Below, piece by piece: positions 54,433 through 64,000 of a stretch of DNA of 64,000 nt. The stretch comes from Butyricimonas sp. (lineage in GTDB: Bacteria > Bacteroidota > Bacteroidia > Bacteroidales > Marinifilaceae): positions 46,911 through 110,910 of the forward strand of contig JAHZBN010000007.1 in NCBI GenBank assembly GCA_019423345.1, given 5' to 3'. The position numbers and the translations under genes are program-made. The notes beneath the pieces were generated by a model. It was not told where the DNA came from. It worked only from the letters and a program-made list of their open reading frames with translations, and searched no databases. Every line of letters begins with the position of its first letter. Position 1 is the stretch's first letter.

Positions 54433-55428
54433 CTAAAAATTGTATAACGCATGTAACTGGAAGAATAATTCTGTTCCGTCTTGGAATATACATTTGCAAC
54501 GAGGGGAAAGACGTTCTAGTTTCACGAATTCCCATTCTCCGATTTTCTCATCTTTATCCGTGAAAACAATAACACTTTCTCGCATATTTTTTTGAATAAG
54601 TTCTGTGGCCAATTCTTCATAACGTCCTTCATTCGTGTAATATATTTCCTTTATTAGTGCTTGAATGCTACTAAATTGTTCAACCGTTGAGCGAATCCGG
54701 ATGTTATTGAATTCTGTTACTAAATATAAATTCCCATTTTCAATATTCATGGAAAGGTTGTAGTGATCTCCTCCTTCTTTTAGTAGTGTAATTTCTCTTA
54801 GCATTCTCTTTGCGATAAGTCCGGAGACCATGTCATCATCATTTATATTCATTTTGATCGTTGCGCTGTAAGGAGGATATTCTTCTACTTGTATAGCCTC
54901 AGAGGTTTCTTTGTTGTATTGTTGTACTTGGCGAAATAAAACTTTTTCCTCGTTATAAACTTTAGTTTCAAGGTAAACATTGGTACTATAATTAATTGTT
55001 GCAATGAAATGAAGATCATTTTTAGACTGGTCCGTCTTGGAGGAAGGAAAGAAGATTTCCATGAATCCGGCAGCATTGATTGTGGTGTCGAAGTCCTGTT
55101 TGTCTTTATTCCAAACTAGTTTCATTCCGGTAAACGTGTTCTCTTTGCTTGGGTCTGAACTACGAGAGTTTATAAAATCGAGAATATTAAAATCAAAGTT
55201 TATATGGTAATAATTCATTATATCGAATATAGAATTATTTTTTCCCATTTCGTTAAACTCTTTAGCCAAGGTTACGCATGAGTTGATATTGTCTTCGATT
55301 AAAGTTCTTAATTCGGAAGAGGGCAACTTCGTGTATGGCTTGTCGTAATCGGTAATAATTTTGTCATCGTCATCGCTACATGCTACAAGAGTCGTAAGCA
55401 GACATAATACATACAAGATTTTTTTCAT
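54433..55428 (-). CDS. hypothetical lipoprotein, last gene of the HK-RR operon
   Basis: 331 aa. Lipobox LVACSDDDD. No family recognised. Confidence 0.5.
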   Translation of the reverse strand: MKKILYVLCLLTTLVACSDDDDKIITDYDKPYTKLPSSELRTLIEDNINSCVTLAKEFNEMGKNNSIFDIMNYYHINFDFNILDFINSRSSDPSKENTFTGMKLVWNKDKQDFDTTINAAGFMEIFFPSSKTDQSKNDLHFIATINYSTNVYLETKVYNEEKVLFRQVQQYNKETSEAIQVEEYPPYSATIKMNINDDDMVSGLIAKRMLREITLLKEGGDHYNLSMNIENGNLYLVTEFNNIRIRSTVEQFSSIQALIKEIYYTNEGRYEELATELIQKNMRESVIVFTDKDEKIGEWEFVKLERLSPRCKCIFQDGTELFFQLHALYNF

Positions 55429-55633: not shown

Positions 55634-56344
55634 TTAGCTTGGTGAAGGGGCGGTAATTAGCATATATCCTTCTTCGTAATCATTTCCGATGTACTCGATC
55701 TTGATGGATGGATCCTTTTTTAATGGTTGCCTGATTCGACACACGTATTCCTTTATCCTTTTTCTTTTGCCAATGGTGGCATCTTTCCAAATTCCCTTCA
55801 TGATGTAATCCATGTTGGCAATTTGATTGCTTTTGACGCATAGTAATTGTAGAAGGCGTGCTTCGCTGGAACTTAGCAGGGTTGCTTCTCCTTGGATGGT
55901 TACCGTGCGTGTAACAACATTAAATGTTGTGATGGGAGAGAGTTCATACACGTGTGGGACGTTTAAGCATGTAATCATTTTATGGCGAAGGGCTTTCAAA
56001 TGGGCGATCAAAACATCCGGAGTACGGTTTTTGGGAATGAATTCATCTGCCCCGGCATCCAGTGCGGCGATTTCTTTTTCCGGTTCTCCGTGGGAAGTAT
56101 AGATGATAATACGTGTTAGCGGGTCTTTCTTCCGGATCAATCGGGTTACTTCGATCCCGTCTTTCTGAGGCATGTTGAGATCGAGTAGTAGAATATCGGG
56201 CTTTTGACGATTGTAGGCATCCCATGCTTTTTCCCCGTCTGCGGCGATGTCGACTATGAATTCGTTTTCTTCTAGGATGATTTTTGTTAATTCAGCTTCG
56301 AGTTCATAGTCTTCTGCATAAAGAATCCTCATCTTGTTTCCCAT
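55634..56344 (-). CDS. OmpR/PhoB-type response regulator (receiver + winged helix)
   Basis: Receiver: ILYAEDY…PDILLLDLNMPQKDG…AGADEFIPK. C-terminal winged-helix LSSSEARLLQLL…YVCRIRQPL. The start may be the inner ATG (MRILYAED). Confidence 0.85.
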   Translation of the reverse strand: MGNKMRILYAEDYELEAELTKIILEENEFIVDIAADGEKAWDAYNRQKPDILLLDLNMPQKDGIEVTRLIRKKDPLTRIIIYTSHGEPEKEIAALDAGADEFIPKNRTPDVLIAHLKALRHKMITCLNVPHVYELSPITTFNVVTRTVTIQGEATLLSSSEARLLQLLCVKSNQIANMDYIMKGIWKDATIGKRKRIKEYVCRIRQPLKKDPSIKIEYIGNDYEEGYMLITAPSPS

Positions 56345-56353
56345 CTTGTTGTT

Positions 56354-57682
56354 TTATTTTATAGGTAATATCACGGTAAAGGTTGTGCCTGTTCCTACCA
56401 CGCTTTCCGCTGTAATCGATCCCCCGTGTGCCCGAACAACCATTCGTGCGAAATACAGACCTTGCCCGTGGCCATTGATTTTCGTGTCGTTTTGGTGATC
56501 ACCCCTGTGGTAGCGCTTGAAGATATGTTTCAAGGCTTCGGGGGTGATACCCGTACCGTTGTCTTTCACCTCGATGCGAATAGCGTTTGGGTTGATGTCT
56601 TTACACGTGATTCGGATATGTACTTTTTCTCCGGCATATTTTAAAGCGTTATCGATTAAATTTAGGAATACCGGTTGTAAAAAATTAGGGTCTCCGGCTA
56701 TCACGTGTCGATCGGAAAGGTATTGGAGTTGAATATCGGCCTGTTTCTCTTTTACTATATTCCATGAGTCCGAACAACTTAGTTCATCCAACATTTCATA
56801 CAGGTTAAAATCTTTAATTTTCAAGCGCAAACCATGGGCATCCGTGGATTGAAGTAATATCCGGCTGATGGATTGTAATACGTTATTCAATTCGGTTGTA
56901 CTCTTTCCCAGTAAGATTTTTTGTTCGGGAGGAAGAGTTTTGTAAAGTATGTAGTGAAGTTTAAGTTCGGTTTCAATGGGGCGTTTCAAGTCATGTACGA
57001 TATTATGCACGAAAATCTCTCGGTATTTTCCGGCTCTTTTCTCCCAATGAAGCGTGTGAAAAAGCGAAATAACACAGAAAATAAGTAGCAGGGAAATGAA
57101 AAAAACTAATGAGATATGTCCGGAAGCCAAGTCTAAAAATAGTGTGAGAGGGTAATTATAAGAGGCGTATAACGTGTCTTTGGCAAGAAAACCTAACGGA
57201 ATCTTTAATTCACACTCTTGGGAAGAGTTTCGATGGGGTGGATAGGAATCTTTGATTTGATGGATACTATCCTCGATGGCAAAATGAATGGCAAAATTTT
57301 TGATGACATGGGTATCTCGTTTTGCTTGCAAGTAGGAGTGAAAGTGTTGCAAGGTCCAACGGGAGGTATCCTGTATGTCGTAATCACTTTGTTCGATAAT
57401 TTGATATATTTTGTCTTCTGGTTTTAATTGAAAACGGAAAATCTGATCGTTTATGACATAGGTTAATCGGTTATTCTTTGGATTGAAACTGACGGTTTGT
57501 TTCGGATCTGCCATTTTCATGTTAAAATCATAAATCGTGTTGGTGATCCATTCATTTTGCTGATTGATGTATATTGTTTTTTCATGTCGGTATAATTGTT
57601 CTATGTAAATTAATTGATTAAATAGAATAATTATCCCGGCAAGAATGGCAATAAACCAGTAATATCTTAAACTCCGATCCAT
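56354..57682 (-). CDS. sensor histidine kinase (2 TM, ~170-aa periplasmic loop, HisKA + HATPase_c)
   Basis: The start at 57682 (MDRSLRYYWFIAILAG…) is preferred. The track's 57955 start overlaps the divergent peptide gene. H-box FVHNIVHDLKRPI. G-boxes DNGTGI, GHGQGL, GTGTTF. Confidence 0.85.
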   Translation of the reverse strand: MDRSLRYYWFIAILAGIIILFNQLIYIEQLYRHEKTIYINQQNEWITNTIYDFNMKMADPKQTVSFNPKNNRLTYVINDQIFRFQLKPEDKIYQIIEQSDYDIQDTSRWTLQHFHSYLQAKRDTHVIKNFAIHFAIEDSIHQIKDSYPPHRNSSQECELKIPLGFLAKDTLYASYNYPLTLFLDLASGHISLVFFISLLLIFCVISLFHTLHWEKRAGKYREIFVHNIVHDLKRPIETELKLHYILYKTLPPEQKILLGKSTTELNNVLQSISRILLQSTDAHGLRLKIKDFNLYEMLDELSCSDSWNIVKEKQADIQLQYLSDRHVIAGDPNFLQPVFLNLIDNALKYAGEKVHIRITCKDINPNAIRIEVKDNGTGITPEALKHIFKRYHRGDHQNDTKINGHGQGLYFARMVVRAHGGSITAESVVGTGTTFTVILPIK

Positions 57683-57705
57683 TTTCGGTATTCTTTCCGT
57701 TTTGT

Positions 57706-57713
57706 CAAAGATA
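57706..57713 (-). promoter_or_regulatory. -7 promoter box for the HK-RR operon
   Basis: The minus strand reads tatctttg, about 24 nt upstream of the HK ATG. Confidence 0.4.
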
Positions 57714-57720
57714 TTGATTT

Positions 57721-57738
57721 TGCAACCCACGTGCAACC
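57721..57738. promoter_or_regulatory. direct repeat TGCAACC-N4-TGCAACC (11-bp phasing), candidate OmpR-type response-regulator site
   Basis: tgcaacccacgtgcaacc in the 112-bp divergent intergenic region between the HK and peptide genes. Confidence 0.3.
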
Positions 57739-57794
57739 GTTTTCTTCGAAAATTAAGCTTTAAAGGTCTATTTTTATCACAAAAATTTACGATT

Positions 57795-58031
57795 ATGAAG
57801 AAAAAGTGGTACGTGTTAATAATTTTAATGTTTATGGCCTGTGCGATCATGTTGAACTTGGATTTGAGTATCCAAGGGAATAGTAATAACAATTCCACGT
57901 TAACCTTAGAAAATATTGAAGCTTTGGGATCCCCGGAATCCGGGGGAGGCTTCAAATATTGTATTCAAGCGGGGGGATATTGTTTTGAGAATGGGATTAA
58001 AGTTAAAGGTATATCAATGAAGGACGAATGA
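57795..58031 (+). CDS. NVEALA-family-like small membrane-anchored/secreted peptide
   Basis: 78 aa from the ATG at 57795: MKKKWYVLIILMFMACAIMLNL…TLENIEALGSPESGGGFKYCIQAGGYCFENGIKVKGISMKDE. The NIEALG motif is in the place of NVEALA. ATGA overlap with the next gene. Confidence 0.6.
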   Translation: MKKKWYVLIILMFMACAIMLNLDLSIQGNSNNNSTLTLENIEALGSPESGGGFKYCIQAGGYCFENGIKVKGISMKDE

Positions 58032-59068
58032 AACATTTGGTATTATATTGTTTGTTAGGAAGTCTCTCTCTAGGATGCACGGAGCATGGCATGGAGAGTG
58101 ATAGTTTGAAAGTTATAAAAAGTGAACGGGTAATTACCACTCGTTTGGTCGACATGTCACGTTGGGGGATACATGAGGTAAACGGGTTCGTGAAACAGGG
58201 AGATCGGATTGTAGTGGAAACGGGAGGCGAATACGGAGAGATCAAGACCATTGATTTGGATGGTCCGGGGACGTTGGATTTGACCGGTCGAGGAGAATCT
58301 TTAAATGATCGTTTCCGGAGTTTGAGCTCGTTCAACTCGTTTGACGGGAAGACCGTGACGGCCTTGGATTTCAGGAAGGGAGAGCTGATTGTGAAGTCGA
58401 TCTCTTCTCTCGCTCGTTCTGGCAACTCGGAGACCGTAGTCCAGCTTCCCTCGGGTGAACAACATTTGATTGCGGCACAGGTCGGGGATCGAGTGATCGC
58501 CACGGGCTTGTATGAAAAGGGACGCTACTTGCTATATTCCTTACCGGATCAGTCGGCACGTTATTCTCTTTCTTACCCGGATCATCCCGTTTATCCCGGC
58601 TTGCAGGAAAAGACAAAAGCGATGCTTTACGCTAGCAACGTGTTGCGTGTTCGTCCGGATGGAGGAGCGTTTGTTTGTGCCGACATGTATAGCGGGGTTA
58701 TAGACTTTTGCCGGGTGACGGCTGATTCTATCGAGCGGGTACGATTGGTTCGATTACATTACCCGGAAGTCGAGGTATCGGAAATCCCTTCTTCACGAGT
58801 GACTTATTGCCAGGGGAACCGTTTCGGTTTTCTGGATGTTGCGGTAACAGAAGATAAGGTGTATGCCCTTTATTCCGGGAAAACCTACAAGATGGATCGG
58901 GGCAGGGCTTTTGAATCTAACTGCCTGCTCGTGTATGATTGGGAAGGGAACCTGATCCGGACACTTTATTTTGGTGATGCCTTGACGGGGATTAGCTATG
59001 ACCGGGAAGAGGGGATGTTGTACGGGATTACGGAAGACGGGAGTTTGATACGTGTGAATTGTCTATGA
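58028..59068 (+). CDS. 6-bladed beta-propeller lipoprotein (TolB-like / BF3164-family-like)
   Basis: 346 aa. Lipobox SLSLGC. C-terminal pattern VYALYSG…LLVYDWEGNLIRTLYFGDALTGISYDREEGMLYGITEDGSLIRV. Confidence 0.6.
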   Translation: MKHLVLYCLLGSLSLGCTEHGMESDSLKVIKSERVITTRLVDMSRWGIHEVNGFVKQGDRIVVETGGEYGEIKTIDLDGPGTLDLTGRGESLNDRFRSLSSFNSFDGKTVTALDFRKGELIVKSISSLARSGNSETVVQLPSGEQHLIAAQVGDRVIATGLYEKGRYLLYSLPDQSARYSLSYPDHPVYPGLQEKTKAMLYASNVLRVRPDGGAFVCADMYSGVIDFCRVTADSIERVRLVRLHYPEVEVSEIPSSRVTYCQGNRFGFLDVAVTEDKVYALYSGKTYKMDRGRAFESNCLLVYDWEGNLIRTLYFGDALTGISYDREEGMLYGITEDGSLIRVNCL

Positions 59069-59080
59069 AAATGTAAGATT

Positions 59081-60808
59081 ATGTTAGCGATAAAAAGTAT
59101 TCCAATATATTTTATTTTACTATTGGCCCCGGTGTTATGGCACTTGGATCATTCGTTACCGGGAATAACAGCGGGTTTTGTAGGAGTATTATTACTGGTC
59201 ATTTGTTCTGTCTTGTTCTTTAAACATCGCGGTTGCCGTTTTAATTTGGTAGATTTATTGTTCGTGTTGTTCGTGGTCTGGTACGTGGGGCGAACAGTTG
59301 GAACGGTGTCTTCCATGTATACTTGGAAGTTATTGTTAGGGAGTGCAGCCATTATTTTGTACGCTTATGTTAGAAATATCGAGCTGAAAGCGATCTACTT
59401 TAACGTGCTTTTTATTGCAGGAATTTTTCAGGCGATATGGTTTTTTGTCCAGTTACTAGGTTTGTTTCCCTCGTATAACTATTTATACCCGGGGACAGGA
59501 GGATTTATGAATCCTGCTATTCTTGCTGTTTTTCTCGCTATAGCTTGTTTAGCCGGGGTGGTTGGTTTTTATTATAAAGAGAGGGTGTATGTGCGTGTAC
59601 TCCGGGGGGCGGGAGTAATATTACTACTTGTCACGTTAGGATGGCTAGCATCTCGTGCGGCTTGGGTTGGTTTAATGCTAGGCATTTTATGGATCGTGCT
59701 GGTCGGAAGGCGATGGAGATTTACCCGTTTCTTGGAAAATATGTTCAAACAATATCGTTTTGGGAAGTATATTCTATTCTTGCTTGTGATTGCCATCTCT
59801 GCAAGCGTGATTTATATTCTTTATTTGTTGCATCCGGCTTCCGTGCAGGGACGTTTTTTAATCTGGCAAGTTGCCGGGAGAATGTTCCTAGATGCTCCAT
59901 GTTTTGGTGGTGGTTCTTTCGCCGCGTTGTATATGCCTGCGCAAGGAGCGTGGCTCGAAGCGCATCCCGGGTCTTCCTTCGCGATGGTTGCAGGGAATAA
60001 TGAACATGTCTTTAATGAATTTCTACGAGTGGCTTGTGAAACCGGGATTGTGGGGTTACTTCTTTTCGTGGGGTTAGTCGTGACGTGTTTTTATTTTGCT
60101 GCAAAAGGGAATCGAATTTCTCGCTTTACCGGGGGTATTTTAGTCGTGATTTTGGCATTCGGTTTGTTTAGTTATCCTCTTTCCGTCGAGGTTGTAGGTG
60201 CCATTGCTATTATTTCTTTAGCTGTTATATCTCGTGATGCACGTCACGCGAGAGAATGGGTTGTTAGTTTGGATAATAGTTTCACTTTTATACTAAGGAT
60301 AGCCGTGGTCTTGTTCGTTTTTGTGTTGACTATCGAGTATTATCACGAGAAAAAGGCGGATGTTCTCTTGACAAAGACACGAGGAACGGAACCTGTGAAT
60401 TGGAACGAGCTAAAGACATGTTACGAGCGTTTGGGGGGTAATCCTGATTTTGTCCTGTGTTACGGGCGAACTTTGTTTACCCGTGGCGAATTTTCGAACG
60501 CTTTACCCGTTCTTGAAAGAGGTTTTTTGTTAAGACCGACTTCCGAACTTGTTTGCGATCTGGGTAGATGCTACATGTACCGGGGACAGTGGAAGGAGGC
60601 AGAACAAAAATATCGTCTTGCAGCCAATATGGTTCCCGCGTATATCACGCCCCGTCATCTCTTGTTTAAATTGTATGATATGCAAGGAATGTCACGAGAG
60701 GCAGGGCAAGAGGCAGAGTACATGCTGACAATGCCCGTGAAGATTGTAAACTCTTCCGTGATTAGAGCCCGTGGACAAGCAAGGGAATTTTTGAAAAGTA
60801 AAGAGTGA
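59081..60808 (+). CDS. O-antigen ligase/polymerase-like (Wzy_C) polytopic membrane protein with a C-terminal TPR region
   Basis: 575 aa, about 10+ TM segments. Wzy_C-type loop NEHVFNEFLRVACETGIVGLLLF. TPR-like tail (…RGQWKEAEQKYRLAANMVP…). Confidence 0.75.
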   Translation: MLAIKSIPIYFILLLAPVLWHLDHSLPGITAGFVGVLLLVICSVLFFKHRGCRFNLVDLLFVLFVVWYVGRTVGTVSSMYTWKLLLGSAAIILYAYVRNIELKAIYFNVLFIAGIFQAIWFFVQLLGLFPSYNYLYPGTGGFMNPAILAVFLAIACLAGVVGFYYKERVYVRVLRGAGVILLLVTLGWLASRAAWVGLMLGILWIVLVGRRWRFTRFLENMFKQYRFGKYILFLLVIAISASVIYILYLLHPASVQGRFLIWQVAGRMFLDAPCFGGGSFAALYMPAQGAWLEAHPGSSFAMVAGNNEHVFNEFLRVACETGIVGLLLFVGLVVTCFYFAAKGNRISRFTGGILVVILAFGLFSYPLSVEVVGAIAIISLAVISRDARHAREWVVSLDNSFTFILRIAVVLFVFVLTIEYYHEKKADVLLTKTRGTEPVNWNELKTCYERLGGNPDFVLCYGRTLFTRGEFSNALPVLERGFLLRPTSELVCDLGRCYMYRGQWKEAEQKYRLAANMVPAYITPRHLLFKLYDMQGMSREAGQEAEYMLTMPVKIVNSSVIRARGQAREFLKSKE

Positions 60809-60883
60809 ATGTCATGACACCAAATATATTTTTTGCAAAAAAGAGTTTTTGAACCTATTGTATGAATTATTAAAAAGTTGATT

Positions 60884-62158
60884 ATGAAAAAAACGAAGTT
60901 TTGGTTTTTGGGAATAATCTTAGCCTTGATTTATTCCTGTTCAGACGACTTTGATGCCGTCGAGGAATCCCCTCAAGATTTTGGGATTTCGGAAGCACAG
61001 TCTTATTTTGAGACGAATGCGACGGATTTAGCTCCGCTTATGTTCTCGAATCCTCTCGCGAGGTCGACTAATTTGGTGATGCCGGAATTGATCCCGGAGT
61101 GGGATAAGGCAATAGAAAGTATTGAAGATGATTACCAAATAACGGAGATACCTCTTTGGTCCCAGCCGAATGTAATTTGCGTGGAAAGTATCATTAAAGA
61201 TTATGAATTCTTTGCTGAAAATAGCATATCTTGTGGACGTCGCTTGGTGATAGCACGAGGAAGTGATGGGAAGACGGATATGTTTGTGGCCACGTTGATC
61301 CCTGATGAGAAATATTCAAAAAATCCTGAGGGAGCTTTTACTGGGCGTGTACTTTATTCGGAACTCAATGGTAAGTTTAGAAAAGCCGTGAGGTATAAAA
61401 ATGGAGAATTAGAAGGGGACTTGTTAATAGTAGGAGCTTATGGTTTTGCAATACAGACAGAGAAAGATGTCCCCACGGGTTATTCTAAACTTACTTTCAT
61501 GGAAGGAAATCCCGTTTTACGAGCCGCAACATATTCTAATAGTGAAAGTGGGGGAGGAAGCTGGGGAGGCGGTGGCGGCGGAGGTGGAATTGGCGGAGGC
61601 GGAATTGGTGGCGGTGGTAGCGGAACTGGAGGAAGTGGAGGTGGAACTGGAGGTGGATATGATCCAGATTATGACCTAGGAGTTGCTGCTCGAGAAAAAA
61701 TAATATCAGATTTGAATTATGGTAAGACGCAGATGGTATACGTGCAGCCGAGAAGTATTGGGGGATATAATTTACTTGATGGAGCTGGACTTGTAACAAA
61801 TACGTATGGTATAGCCACGTCATGTTTCAATTTTTTAAATGAAATGACGCGGAAGCAACTTCAGCTATTTGGTAATTCTGTAGGATATTTGGGAGTAGGG
61901 ATAAGTTTTGCTCAAACAATTATCGCATTTACTGATGGTGATATTACGGGTAACGACATTTTAGGAGCTGTTTCTACGGCACTCGGTGCTGCTAGTTATG
62001 CTTTTGCTGCTGCTGGATTGTTTCCTGTTGCTGGAGTGGTTGGCATTGTTTCTACAATGATAAATTTAGCAGGACAATCTTTGTTAATTCAAGTTCCTTT
62101 AGAAGATGGTCATAATGTTTATGTATACATATCACCGAATATGACATCATTTGCTTAA
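60884..62158 (+). CDS. lipoprotein with N-terminal globular domain, ~36-aa poly-Gly linker and a glycine-zipper-rich hydrophobic C-terminal domain (candidate membrane-active toxin)
   Basis: ATG at 60884. Lipobox LIYSC. Linker GGGSWGGGGGGGGIGGGGIGGGGSGTGGSGGGTGGG. C-terminus VGYLGVGISFAQTIIAF … ILGAVSTALGAASYAFAAAGLFPVAGVVGIVSTMINLAG. Confidence 0.6.
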   Translation: MKKTKFWFLGIILALIYSCSDDFDAVEESPQDFGISEAQSYFETNATDLAPLMFSNPLARSTNLVMPELIPEWDKAIESIEDDYQITEIPLWSQPNVICVESIIKDYEFFAENSISCGRRLVIARGSDGKTDMFVATLIPDEKYSKNPEGAFTGRVLYSELNGKFRKAVRYKNGELEGDLLIVGAYGFAIQTEKDVPTGYSKLTFMEGNPVLRAATYSNSESGGGSWGGGGGGGGIGGGGIGGGGSGTGGSGGGTGGGYDPDYDLGVAAREKIISDLNYGKTQMVYVQPRSIGGYNLLDGAGLVTNTYGIATSCFNFLNEMTRKQLQLFGNSVGYLGVGISFAQTIIAFTDGDITGNDILGAVSTALGAASYAFAAAGLFPVAGVVGIVSTMINLAGQSLLIQVPLEDGHNVYVYISPNMTSFA

Positions 62159-62256
62159 TTTTGTTGTGAACTAACGTTTTTGTTAATAGCATTATTCTGA
62201 GTAGCTTGATATTTTTTATATTAGGCTACTTGGAATAATGTAAAATATTAAAGTTA

Positions 62257-62730
62257 ATGAAAAAATATCGTCGTTCTTTTTGGGCAGCATCCTGTGTAAA
62301 TTCAATGATAATACCATGGATAGTAGCGTTTGTATTCAGTTATTTATCAGTTAAAGATAGAATAGATATTTCGAGAGTACTTTCTTTTTATGGATTGATA
62401 TTTGGGGGTATTCCAACTTTAGTCATTTTGGCTTATTTCTTCGTGTCGGAGTTTTATGTTATCTTGTCAGATGATGCGTTGATCTTAAAGAATGCGATTT
62501 GTCCGTTTTGGAAGAAGAAAGTGTATTATAATGACATGGTGAAAGTAAAGATAATTTACTATGGAGGTGGTCCTTCAATTCCTTTCATGAAAATAGCTAC
62601 CACCAAGGCACAACGATCGGGGCGTTATTATCTGGATCGTGTTCGTCTTAAAGATTTTCCAGAGATAATAGATTTTTTGAGGGAGAAGGGGATTGAAGTT
62701 TATGTAAAGGGGATGGAATGTTTTAAATGA
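62257..62730 (+). CDS. two-TM protein with soluble C-terminal domain, array member A1
   Basis: 157 aa. TM1 IIPWIVAFVFSYL, TM2 GLIFGGIPTLVILAYFFV. Also LILKNAICPFWKKKVYY … RYYLDRVRLKDFPEIIDFLREKGIEV. Confidence 0.6.
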   Translation: MKKYRRSFWAASCVNSMIIPWIVAFVFSYLSVKDRIDISRVLSFYGLIFGGIPTLVILAYFFVSEFYVILSDDALILKNAICPFWKKKVYYNDMVKVKIIYYGGGPSIPFMKIATTKAQRSGRYYLDRVRLKDFPEIIDFLREKGIEVYVKGMECFK

Positions 62731-62781
62731 AACATAGTAGAGAACAAGAACTATAGATAATTTTGTAAGAAACAATAACAA

Positions 62782-63237
62782 ATGAAAACCTTCCGTCGTT
62801 CTTTTGGGAAAACAACAACATTTAAACATATGTTCATGCCGTTTTTAATACCCTTATTGTTGTTTTTTATTTTTTACGATTATAATCTTAATTCAGTAGC
62901 ATGGTGTTATTTACTTTTAGTAGTATTAATATTTTTAATCGCTCTTATTTTTCAATTATTTTATATAGTATTGGAAGATAATTTTTTTGTTATAAAGAAT
63001 GGAATTTGTCCATTTTTGTATGAAAAACATTTTTATAAGAATGTAGAAAAAGTAAATATCAAACGTCCTGGAGGAATGACCCCTCCCTATATTCAAGTTA
63101 TTACGAAGAAAAATAGAAAACATGCGTGGAAATATATTATAGATTTAGTAGCTCCAAAAGAATATGACAAATTAGTTGAGGCTATTAAGTCAAAAGGTGT
63201 TATTGTTGATAACGAGAATCTTGTAAATTGGAATTAA
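62782..63237 (+). CDS. two-TM protein, array member B1 (divergent subtype)
   Basis: 151 aa. MKTFRRSFG…, FVIKNGICPFLYEKHFY, …YDKLVEAIKSKGV. Confidence 0.6.
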   Translation: MKTFRRSFGKTTTFKHMFMPFLIPLLLFFIFYDYNLNSVAWCYLLLVVLIFLIALIFQLFYIVLEDNFFVIKNGICPFLYEKHFYKNVEKVNIKRPGGMTPPYIQVITKKNRKHAWKYIIDLVAPKEYDKLVEAIKSKGVIVDNENLVNWN

Positions 63238-63314: not shown

Positions 63315-63782
63315 ATGAAAACATTCCGTAATTCTTTTTGGTCGGGTCGATGGGTACAATCAATATTTATACCATGGACGGTAGCGAATGTATTATGTGT
63401 TTTGATTGTAATGAATAATGTTGATTTTACGAAATTATTCTCATGGTATGGATTGATAATACTTTTACCGAACTTGTTATTTTATGGCATAGTATTCTTA
63501 TCAGAATTTTATATTATATTCTCGAATGACGCTTTAATCCTAAAAAATGCCATTTGTCCGTTTTGGACGAAAAAGGTTTTTTATGGAGATCCGGTAAAAT
63601 TAAAGATTATTTATTTTAGTGGCTATACAATACCTTACATACAAATCATAAGAGGTGCAAGAAAATTTGCTTGGCGTTATTATCTAGATCGTGTTCGTCT
63701 TAAAGATTTTCCCGCAATAATAGATTATTTGAGAGAGAAAGGGATTGAAGTTCATGTCAATGGAATGGAATATTTTAAATGA
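63315..63782 (+). CDS. two-TM protein, array member A2
   Basis: 155 aa. LILKNAICPFWTKKVFY … RYYLDRVRLKDFPAIIDYLREKGIEV. Closest to A1. Confidence 0.6.
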   Translation: MKTFRNSFWSGRWVQSIFIPWTVANVLCVLIVMNNVDFTKLFSWYGLIILLPNLLFYGIVFLSEFYIIFSNDALILKNAICPFWTKKVFYGDPVKLKIIYFSGYTIPYIQIIRGARKFAWRYYLDRVRLKDFPAIIDYLREKGIEVHVNGMEYFK

Positions 63783-63832: not shown

Positions 63833-64000
63833 ATGAAAACATTCCGTCGTTCTTTTTGGCAAGCAACTACCTCTAAATGGTATATCACGTTTACGGTAAT
63901 AGTGGCGATTTTAATCACGCCTTTCGTTTATTTTGCAACTCATTCTTTGGGAGCTTGTTTACTATTGTTATTAATATGGAGCCTCGTGTGTTTTCCCATA
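63833..64000 (+). CDS. two-TM protein, array member B2 (5' partial, runs off the window)
   Basis: ATG at 63833 after an intergenic spacer nearly identical to 62731-62781. Reads MKTFRRSFWQATTSKWYITFTVIVAILITPF…; open to the window end. Confidence 0.5.
   Translation, partial: MKTFRRSFWQATTSKWYITFTVIVAILITPFVYFATHSLGACLLLLLIWSLVCFPI

Follow-up and report, generated by a model that had tools for sequence, protein, structure and literature searches.

In a stretch of 64,000 nucleotides of Butyricimonas sp. (assembly GCA_019423345.1, contig JAHZBN010000007.1, positions 46,911 to 110,910 of the forward strand; hereafter the window), a gene at 60884..62158 (+) encodes a lipoprotein composed of an N-terminal domain (N-domain), a Gly-rich linker and a C-terminal module. 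With a probability of roughly 0.7, we regard this gene as encoding a polymorphic lipoprotein-type bacteriocin of Butyricimonas, the tip of which is swapped along with a matching protective gene. Comparison of loci, i.e. evidence at the level of sequence, shows the N-domain to behave as a species-conserved carrier, with warheads exchanged behind the linker together with the adjacent downstream gene. It also assigns the warhead of the window to a family of modules of about 165 amino acids (aa) with a conserved, transmembrane-grade hydrophobic segment of 40–48 aa. A first-pass annotation had proposed a modular secreted toxin with a membrane-directed warhead and immunity genes downstream, and comparative genomics supports this proposal.

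The open reading frame spans 60878..62158 (+) and opens with TTG; the ATG at 60884 yields a protein of 424 aa plus stop. About 30 full-length homologues in Butyricimonas (37–99% identity) keep the same architecture, which indicates that the gene is real. All named ones among them are Butyricimonas entries termed 'hypothetical protein' (B. virosa 93%, B. hominis 47%), which points to B. virosa or a close relative as the source of the window.

Exchange of C-terminal modules behind a conserved carrier domain

The N-domain comprises residues 20–216 (60941..61531, +), is predicted by AlphaFold2 (AF2) to be beta-rich and is found with unrelated C-termini. The linker (residues 222–258; 61547..61657, +; 65.8% GC) is encoded by imperfect tandem repeats of 15 and 21 bp, and its length differs between homologues. 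With 28 Gly in 37 aa (76%), the Gly linker of about 36 residues described in the first-pass annotation is present, its designation as 'almost pure' being slightly overstated. The warhead module, as delimited by profile search, follows with residues 259–424 (166 aa; 61658..62155, +).

Exchange of the tip is seen in protein as well as in DNA comparison. Five homologues (P0011–P0013, P0015 and P0016) carry an N-domain that is 87–98% identical to that of the window, next to a C-terminal module with an identity of 36–44%. The DNA of the window and of the loci L020, L021 and L022 is 90–97% identical from position 57001 to 61654–61681; past this junction homology is lost, and it resumes only as rearranged pieces of the downstream array. 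The recombination breakpoint (61654..61681, +), at which DNA identity to these three loci stops, is located at the junction of linker and C-terminus (GGG-YDPDY-LG).

Four types of C-terminal module were distinguished, namely A (window), B, C and D. Between the window and L020, L021 and L022, N-domains are 94–98% identical, C-termini 37–42%, and the first downstream genes 26–38%. The loci L021 and L003 share 65% identity in the N-domain, 70% in the C-terminus and 71% in the first gene; for L022 and L005 the respective values are 62%, 68% and 60% (over 316 aa, both genes being two-unit tandem fusions). Modules of the same type (at least 68% identity) are hence accompanied by the same first gene (at least 60%), even where the N-domains are only 62–65% identical, whereas with modules of different type the first gene is at most 45% identical. 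The first downstream gene tracks the module type and not the N-domain; this categorical pattern is clean, although the lineages that provide independent cases are few.

The most telling single finding is a displaced cassette in L022, which most probably represents a tip with its immunity gene. The primary toxin of this locus is of type D and has a type-D partner gene. Further down lies an orphan type-A toxin tip, ending in '...AGCVVGIVSTMINLAGQSMLIQVPLEDGHNVYVYISPNMILFA' before the stop, and then a gene that is 86% identical to the first array gene of the window; the DNA of this orphan cassette is 91% identical over 757 bp to window positions 62027-62776. Displaced cassettes of C-terminal tip and immunity gene define the orphan modules of contact-dependent inhibition (CDI) and Rhs systems. 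The window itself contains no orphan C-terminus.

The N-domain also carries tips of entirely different kind. Four weaker matches (P0033–P0036; 33–41% identity) align with the protein of the window over residues 1–225 only, and beyond the N-domain display a Cys-rich insert, a Gly-rich linker of their own and unrelated C-termini. The C-terminus of P0033 is homologous to a solved 'Peptidase C39-like' domain (PDB 9jdd/9jg8, E = 5e-13), which is the C-terminal part of a 617-aa protein; literature searches on 9JG8/9JDD and on C39-like effectors returned nothing relevant. P0034 contains a HELLH motif, with weak matches to metallopeptidase families. A pattern scan with the N-domain alignment against one genome per species detected ten loci in Butyricimonas, Odoribacter, a Rikenellaceae metagenome-assembled genome (MAG) and other Bacteroidales. 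In these, the N-domain is fused to HExxH-type tips (L011, L015, L016, L017) and to papain/C39-like tips (L013, L017, L018), one of which exceeds the threshold of the Pfam family Peptidase_C39_2 (28 bits vs 24). Directly downstream of such peptidase tips lies a small gene with a Sec signal peptide, different for each type of tip. L011 contains two extra copies of its downstream gene as well as a 77-aa orphan toxin-tip fragment, L014 a tandem pair of toxins, and one MAG at least four paralogous toxin loci. A broad word-index search with the N-domain, the output of which was swamped by close relatives, returned neither a B. fragilis protein nor any named protein.

Between N-domain and Gly-rich linker, non-Butyricimonas members possess an insert of 60–90 aa with many CxxC pairs (zinc-ribbon-like) and the sequence PDPDPNP. 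It was observed in the toxins of L011, L012, L013 and L015–L018 and in P0033–P0035; the Butyricimonas proteins are devoid of it.

Judged in silico, the locus displays the features by which the class of polymorphic toxins and bacteriocins is defined (Zhang/Aravind 2012). A conserved N-terminal trafficking region is combined with alternative, unrelated C-terminal domains; the adjacent downstream gene, putatively encoding immunity, covaries with the type of toxin; and there are orphan or displaced cassettes (L022, L011) along with a demarcated recombination junction.

The warhead module is moreover shared with other scaffolds. A word-index search with the C-terminus only returned close fragments; an exhaustive profile search, built from 16 diverse C-terminal modules, exposed other scaffolds and yielded 108 representative clusters (69 at E <= 1e-10), with the module always at the extreme C-terminus. 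It is borne by at least four types of scaffold: N-domain lipoproteins of 420–570 aa, including many divergent ones; lipoproteins in which no N-domain was detectable (P0071, P0078); proteins about 240 aa long with double-glycine-leader-like N-termini ('..LPKVSDKxLxxxGKG' or a GG end), in which the leader is followed by the motif 'LPE[IV]xVTP[DE]G' and then by an acidic/Trp/Gly-rich linker; and Cys-rich proteins with a Sec signal. P0071 (L025), with its different lipoprotein N-terminus, is followed by two members of the same family of proteins with two transmembrane segments (2-TM) that is found downstream in the window (E = 2e-19 and 5e-16). P0121 (L023/L024) is directly preceded by a transporter with Peptidase_C39, ABC_membrane and ABC_tran domains and by a 416-aa gene; an OEP gene lies on its other side, and two tandem multi-TM proteins come after it. 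By its gene content this is a canonical bacteriocin export locus. The module thus serves as cargo for export in a secretion setting of unrelated type as well, where it keeps membrane-protein partners. The protein of the window has a lipoprotein signal and not a GG-type leader with an adjacent C39-ABC transporter, the arrangement of peptidase-containing ABC transporter (PCAT) systems; P0121 and other relatives of the module do have it.

Two observations on these scaffolds may be added. The motif 'LPE[IV]x[VI]TP[DE]G' occurs after a putative GG/GKG leader site in P0114, P0120, P0121, P0124, P0133, P0138, P0141, P0143, P0152 and P0055. P0069, P0070 and P0074 represent a scaffold in which the N-terminus bears two CxxCxxCxxxCP motifs, resembling those of 4Fe-4S ferredoxins, and in which a signal peptide is not obvious.

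The hydrophobic module, the downstream array and the alleles of the putative toxin

The module consists of a helical head, an amphipathic helix, a conserved TDGD loop, a hydrophobic segment of about 41 aa and a beta tail. Both hydrophobic strings quoted in the first-pass annotation occur verbatim in this part of the protein. The first stretch (residues 329–349) has a mean Kyte-Doolittle (KD) value of 1.21, which is under transmembrane grade. The second (residues 358–398; 61955..62077, +) has a mean of 1.36, a maximum of 1.96 in a 19-residue window and 46% G/A/S, and thus constitutes a transmembrane-grade core of helical-hairpin length. At the position of this core, 96% of 84 related modules reach a KD value of at least 1.6 in a 19-residue window; in these 84 sequences, the family-mean hydropathy has its maximum (1.86) near residue ~380, and G387 is invariant. 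The GC content of the module is 37.5%, compared to 41.5% in the N-domain and 41.9% in the window.

A repeated G/A/S-xxx-G/A/S spacing, which had been taken as a sign of a glycine zipper, is not borne out: 12 such pairs were counted, and shuffles of the same composition give 10.9 +/- 2.0 (P = 0.39). The intact relative P0002 behaves alike (11 vs 11.5 expected). The region is thus small-residue-rich, with no zipper periodicity above composition, and the protein does not qualify as a demonstrated glycine-zipper toxin.

Downstream of the toxin gene lies the array of small membrane proteins noted in the first-pass annotation, of which the window holds three complete paralogues and the start of a fourth. 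In each protein, a soluble domain of about 90 aa comes after a pair of hydrophobic segments. The downstream genes are all members of a single family, those of about 320 aa being tandem fusions of two units; the complete array of this lineage was read from L007. Gene 1 (62257..62730, +; 157 aa, two TM segments and soluble domain) is the candidate cognate immunity gene for type A, as judged by covariation and by the orphan cassette of L022. Gene 2 (62782..63237, +; 151 aa) shares 91% identity with the gene that directly follows type-B toxins (L020) and is a candidate orphan immunity gene. Gene 3 (63315..63782, +; 155 aa) is of the same family; none of the toxin types sampled matches it. Gene 4 starts at 63833 (63833..64000, +), crosses the end of the window, is a 324-aa two-unit fusion in L007 and shares 65% identity with the gene directly behind type-D toxins. 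Gene 5 (153 aa), past the window end and read from L007, has 95% identity with the gene next to type-C toxins on their downstream side. With 26–35% GC in its genes and 23.5% in the intergenic region 62159-62256 (window 41.9%), the array is rich in AT. This composition, together with the presence of partners of other toxin types, is what one would expect if orphan immunity genes had accumulated, and the array looks like a stockpile of antidotes against the toxin versions of sister strains. Matches of this family to families of the pleckstrin homology (PH) type are below threshold (of 18 members, four match EbsA and three bPH_4), and for this reason an architecture of two TM segments plus a bacterial PH-like domain is a lead only. 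At the far end of the array, B. virosa loci contain a gene with a Fic domain (L007 10833-11642 (-), L020 10263-10994 (-)).

The toxin gene of the window differs from its relatives by an in-frame deletion of 21 bp (7 aa, VGIAGCV) at 62038..62039 (+), recognised by BLASTN against L007 and in alignment A2, and located between direct repeats GTTGGCATTG. It was observed only in the window, P0001 and P0037; all 15 remaining sequences of alignment A2 retain these residues. The lost residues include a Gly that is present in at least 90% of the modules and a conserved Cys, so that the allele of the window may be inactive. A common B. virosa allele (L007 6152-7447; also L008 and L009) has TAG in place of TAT at codon 217 of the toxin (window 61532-61534), which results in 'fragment' proteins of 216 and 148 aa in at least 175 collection blocks. 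In the lineage with this allele the TolB-like and Wzy_C genes, which lie upstream in the window, are split as well, and the array is intact. Loss of the toxin with retention of immunity is expected for such systems.

It is thus a possibility to be taken seriously, albeit not the one we favour, that the toxin system exists in the species and that the copy in the window is decayed or attenuated, the strain being effectively a carrier of immunity only. The rarity of the deletion in the hydrophobic core and the wide distribution of a second, independent loss-of-function allele (TAG at codon 217) both fit such a decay. The reading frame of the window allele is intact, however, and the deletion falls within a repetitive G-x-x-G-[IV] region, leaving a hydrophobic segment of 41 aa with its KD maximum of 1.96; in some other family members the segments at this point are shorter, too.

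Possible mode of action and competing interpretations

The N-terminus of the toxin (MKKTKFWFLGIILALIYS followed by Cys) is a lipoprotein signal, with signal peptide and lipobox in residues 1–19 (...LIYS before C19; 60884..60940, +). Cys19 is invariant across the 25-sequence family alignment (A6), very divergent relatives included. It is followed by the acidic stretch SDDFDAVEE (60941..60967, +), and 18 of the 25 family members have at least two D/E within six residues after the Cys. A signal for signal peptidase II, a lipidated Cys and several subsequent D/E are the features of the lipoprotein export signal (LES), and C19-SDDFDAVEE conforms to them. In Bacteroidota, the LES consists of D/E residues after the Cys, and lipoproteins with LES reach the cell surface and vesicles (PMC12632263). 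At the boundary of the N-domain, the motif R213-A-A-T216-Y217-S-N-S-E221 (61520..61546, +; alignment A3) contains near-invariant R213, T216, Y217 and E221 and is a candidate site of Arg-specific processing; in divergent family members the N-domain ends with T[RK]S[GF]GE[DG].

These data may suggest the following mechanism. The precursor would receive its lipid at Cys19 and would be flipped to the cell surface with the aid of its acidic, LES-like sequence SDDFD; outer membrane vesicles might take it up as cargo. By analogy with the Bacteroidales toxins Fab1 and BcpT, the C-terminal fragment would be released or activated by a cut close to the conserved R213. The hydrophobic segment of this fragment would insert as a hairpin into the cytoplasmic membrane of related target cells and dissipate membrane integrity or potential. 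In the membrane of the producer, the first downstream 2-TM protein (157 aa) would neutralise the cognate warhead, and other genes of the array would provide defence against the warheads of types B, C and D that sister strains carry. The pairs predicted in this manner are type A with the 157-aa protein, B with the 151-aa protein, C with the 153-aa protein and D with the fusion of 317/324 aa.

A toxin/immunity pair could also act without pore formation, in that the module docks on a membrane protein or lipid carrier of the target and blocks or hijacks it, and the 2-TM proteins shield the docking target. Class II bacteriocins use Man-PTS, and the ionophore CdiA-CT(EC93) depends on a membrane protein of the target cell. 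Several traits of the module agree with docking: highly conserved non-hydrophobic positions (the TDGD loop, Q344-T345 and S364) exceed the needs of simple membrane partitioning, the first hydrophobic stretch is below transmembrane grade, and the strong diversification of C-terminus and partner gene fits specific protein–protein recognition. On the other hand, no target can be named, and the hydrophobic segment of 40–48 aa with its membrane-embedded partners fits direct insertion equally well. We consider docking unlikely, and retain membrane insertion of the warhead of a polymorphic bacteriocin as the preferred mode of action.

Structure prediction and remote homology searches, proposed in the first-pass annotation for the C-terminal domain, gave no match in PDB and an AF2 model of moderate confidence in the head of the module (helices 261–278 and 323–336) with a predicted local distance difference test (pLDDT) value below 50 in its core. 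A full-length AF2 model from a 24-sequence alignment (mean pLDDT 44.5) was discarded. With an alignment of 86 rows, the N-domain reached a pLDDT of 85–95 over residues ~31–180, modelled as one helix and about 11 strands; linker and hydrophobic core stayed below 50 even then. Low confidence in the hydrophobic segment is compatible with folding only in the membrane, and in itself proves nothing. Foldseek searches of PDB and BFVD returned nothing at E <= 1e-3 (best E = 0.017, TM-score <= 0.13), which leaves the N-domain without a recognisable solved relative. As already stated in the first-pass annotation, no characterised family is apparent: the toxin has no match in Pfam (scan cut-off E <= 0.1), NCBIfam or PDB, and the genes of the downstream array belong to neither a Pfam nor an NCBIfam family. 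When PDB was searched with the toxin sequence and with profiles of the C-terminus and of the candidate immunity family, nothing came up but artificial Gly linkers and noise. Searches of PHROGs and PADLOC gave zero matches, and the notion of a phage-lysis or anti-phage-defence function was dropped. Literature searches yielded no description of this toxin family, of Butyricimonas bacteriocins or of Bacteroidota lipoprotein toxin domains.

Several points weigh against the interpretation of the gene as a bacteriocin. Homology to any toxin of known mechanism is absent from the Pfam, NCBIfam and PDB searches, AF2 confidence is low in the very part that would be active, and small-xxx-small periodicity is no higher than chance. 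Covariation is clean only in its categorical form, for which a handful of lineages serve as independent cases. Over all 28 pairs of loci, C-terminus identity and first-gene identity are only weakly correlated by rank (rho = 0.21, P = 0.28), since the values of unrelated types saturate at 26–45%. The window allele lacks seven residues in its last hydrophobic helix, and a nonsense pseudogene allele of the toxin is widespread. Toxicity, membrane action and proteolytic release are what we infer from sequence; surface exposure, cleavage at R213 and entry into target cells are proposed by analogy with the systems discussed below.

It appears very improbable that the protein is a structural lipoprotein of the surface or outer membrane, i.e. 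an adhesin or glycan factor working with the adjoining gene of O-antigen-ligase-like (Wzy_C) and TPR type, with the C-terminus as a membrane anchor and unrelated membrane-protein genes downstream: such a gene does adjoin in several lineages, a toxin domain is not recognisable by Pfam or NCBIfam and the N-domain is without known fold. Against this reading, the N-domain also bears peptidase tips of C39-like and HExxH kind that have downstream genes of their own, and a structural protein would not be expected to swap its C-terminus along with a partner gene or to leave an orphan cassette. Furthermore, a PCAT bacteriocin exporter has the module as its cargo, and nonsense alleles are common while the array is kept.

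Relation to known systems, neighbouring genes and implications

In the polymorphic toxins surveyed by Zhang et al. (2012), a lipobox is followed by a lineage-specific N-domain (APD1/APD2, MAFB-N), and the present family is not included (PMC3482391). With these proteins and with SitA/SitI of Myxococcus (PMC3482391, PMC5562445), the system in Butyricimonas shares a lipobox and conserved trafficking N-domain, variable C-terminal toxin domains, a downstream candidate immunity gene, orphan cassettes and arrays of immunity type. Its N-domain belongs to another, undescribed family (no Pfam and no fold match). As further differences, the hosts are gut Bacteroidales (Odoribacteraceae, Rikenellaceae), a Wzy_C/TPR partner gene recurs at the loci, and delivery presumably takes place via LES-mediated surface exposure or vesicles. 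We know of no outer-membrane-exchange machinery in gut Bacteroidales.

The nearest architectural analogue is Fab1/RFab1 of B. fragilis (PMC8406203), compared here by description and not by sequence. Fragipain removes an N-terminal part of about 200 aa from Fab1 between R200 and A201, and the C-terminal fragment is active (PMC8406203); BcpT/BcpI is likewise activated by Arg-specific cleavage (R65 and R199, doripain). Similar to Fab1, the toxin of the window is a protoxin of about 45–50 kDa without recognisable domains and with a conserved Arg-Ala (R213-A214), at which cleavage is conceivable; a candidate immunity gene lies directly downstream, and in both systems some strains have the immunity gene alone. 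Polymorphic C-termini, Gly linker, hydrophobic warhead and immunity arrays set the present system apart from Fab1 as described.

The resemblance to pore-forming colicins (A, E1, Ia, N) proposed in the first-pass annotation is limited to architecture. Modularity, a Gly-rich region, a C-terminal segment with the length of a hairpin (about 40 aa) and an adjacent integral-membrane protein as candidate for immunity are shared; the Colicin pore domain (PF01024) was not found by Pfam, and PDB gave no match. The warhead of about 165 aa would contain helices and beta hairpins, according to a low-confidence AF2 model, and not the 10-helix bundle of colicins. Moreover, the protein is lipidated by prediction, its N-terminal part is a putative lipoprotein trafficking domain in place of receptor and translocation domains, the Gly-rich part joins two domains instead of forming an N-terminal translocation domain, and the gene lies on the chromosome with no lysis gene at the locus.

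Bacteroidales secreted antimicrobial proteins (BSAPs) are antibacterial surface lipoproteins with strain- or species-specific action, and killing requires their LES-dependent exposure (PMC12853789). The toxin of the window would resemble them as an LES-like surface lipoprotein of Bacteroidales; it differs in the absence of a MACPF domain (PF01823) from the Pfam scan and in the presence of covarying downstream genes. Producers of BSAPs are protected by receptor replacement and are not known to rely on an immunity protein.

Tse5-CT, CdiA-CT(EC93) and CdzC/D have hydrophobic C-termini rich in small residues, act on the inner membrane and are paired with membrane immunity proteins; they are delivered either as the tip of a polymorphic protein or through a type I-like exporter. 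The present system has a C-terminus of this kind and membrane partner genes as well, whereas no sequence relationship was detected, the delivery machinery is another one and zipper periodicity is not significant.

The Wzy_C/TPR gene of the window (59081..60808, +) encodes a membrane protein of 575 aa, assigned by Pfam, and ends 75 nt before the toxin gene on the same strand, as given in the first-pass annotation. Genes of this kind also adjoin N-domain toxins in L003 (2557-4317 and 5208-6947), L015 (8267-10201), L018 (8118-9926) and L019 (6565-8358); in Butyricimonas they lie upstream, and in a distant MAG downstream, with a paralogue of their own at each of three toxin loci. As a possible accessory factor, the product could modify the toxin or remodel a receptor glycan. 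More speculatively, and in our view doubtful, N-domain and Wzy_C (WaaL/PglL-like)/TPR protein could form an unrecognised dedicated presentation pathway for polymorphic toxins of gut Bacteroidales, with the warhead family shuttling between this pathway and PCAT export. The ligase-like enzyme would then glycosylate or glycan-link the Ser/Thr-containing Gly linker of the toxin or, alternatively, remodel the producer's own surface glycan receptor for self-protection.

Further upstream, a gene at 57792-58031 encodes a 79-aa peptide of the NVEALA family with a hydrophobic N-terminus, the sequence '...LENIEALGSPESGGG' and a two-Cys core. It overlaps the start of the gene for a TolB-like lipoprotein with a six-blade propeller (58028-59068). 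A pair of histidine kinase and response regulator (55634-57955, -) is divergent from both genes. Every Butyricimonas locus conserves the NVEALA/TolB-like unit, which resembles an independent module of peptide or bacteriocin-like type; a literature search on the NVEALA family found nothing. Between dnaG and the two-component system lies a gene for a 331-aa lipoprotein (54433-55428, -) with a very strong LES-like sequence 'CSDDDDK' and no Pfam or NCBIfam match. A lipoprotein of about 610 aa, ending in '...GIEERIFT..IRFW' and with a weak match to F5/8 type C, recurs near toxin loci of Butyricimonas and Odoribacter (L007 11804-13636 (-), L005 12833-14680 (-), L011 4091-5938, L013 3800-5917, and the upstream genes of L001/L002).

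A review of diffusible toxins of Bacteroidales from 2025 lists only BSAP, BfUbb, bacteroidetocins, BcpT, Fab1 and CDCL (PMC11901371), and in the literature searched no antagonism system is described for Butyricimonas and Odoribacter, which are prevalent gut Bacteroidales. Carrier domain, warhead and immunity protein appear to be three undescribed families within a well-known conceptual class. If the proposed interpretation is true, the N-domain would be a new carrier domain for lipoprotein toxins, the module a new family of membrane-directed warheads (108 representative clusters) common to lipoprotein and PCAT export, and the array proteins a new 2-TM immunity family organised in strain-specific arrays. 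The Wzy_C/TPR protein may bear on the question, left open in PMC12632263, of how LES lipoproteins and toxins reach the surface or are released. The predicted pairs of toxin type and immunity protein would constitute a directly testable cross-immunity matrix for strain exclusion in the gut.

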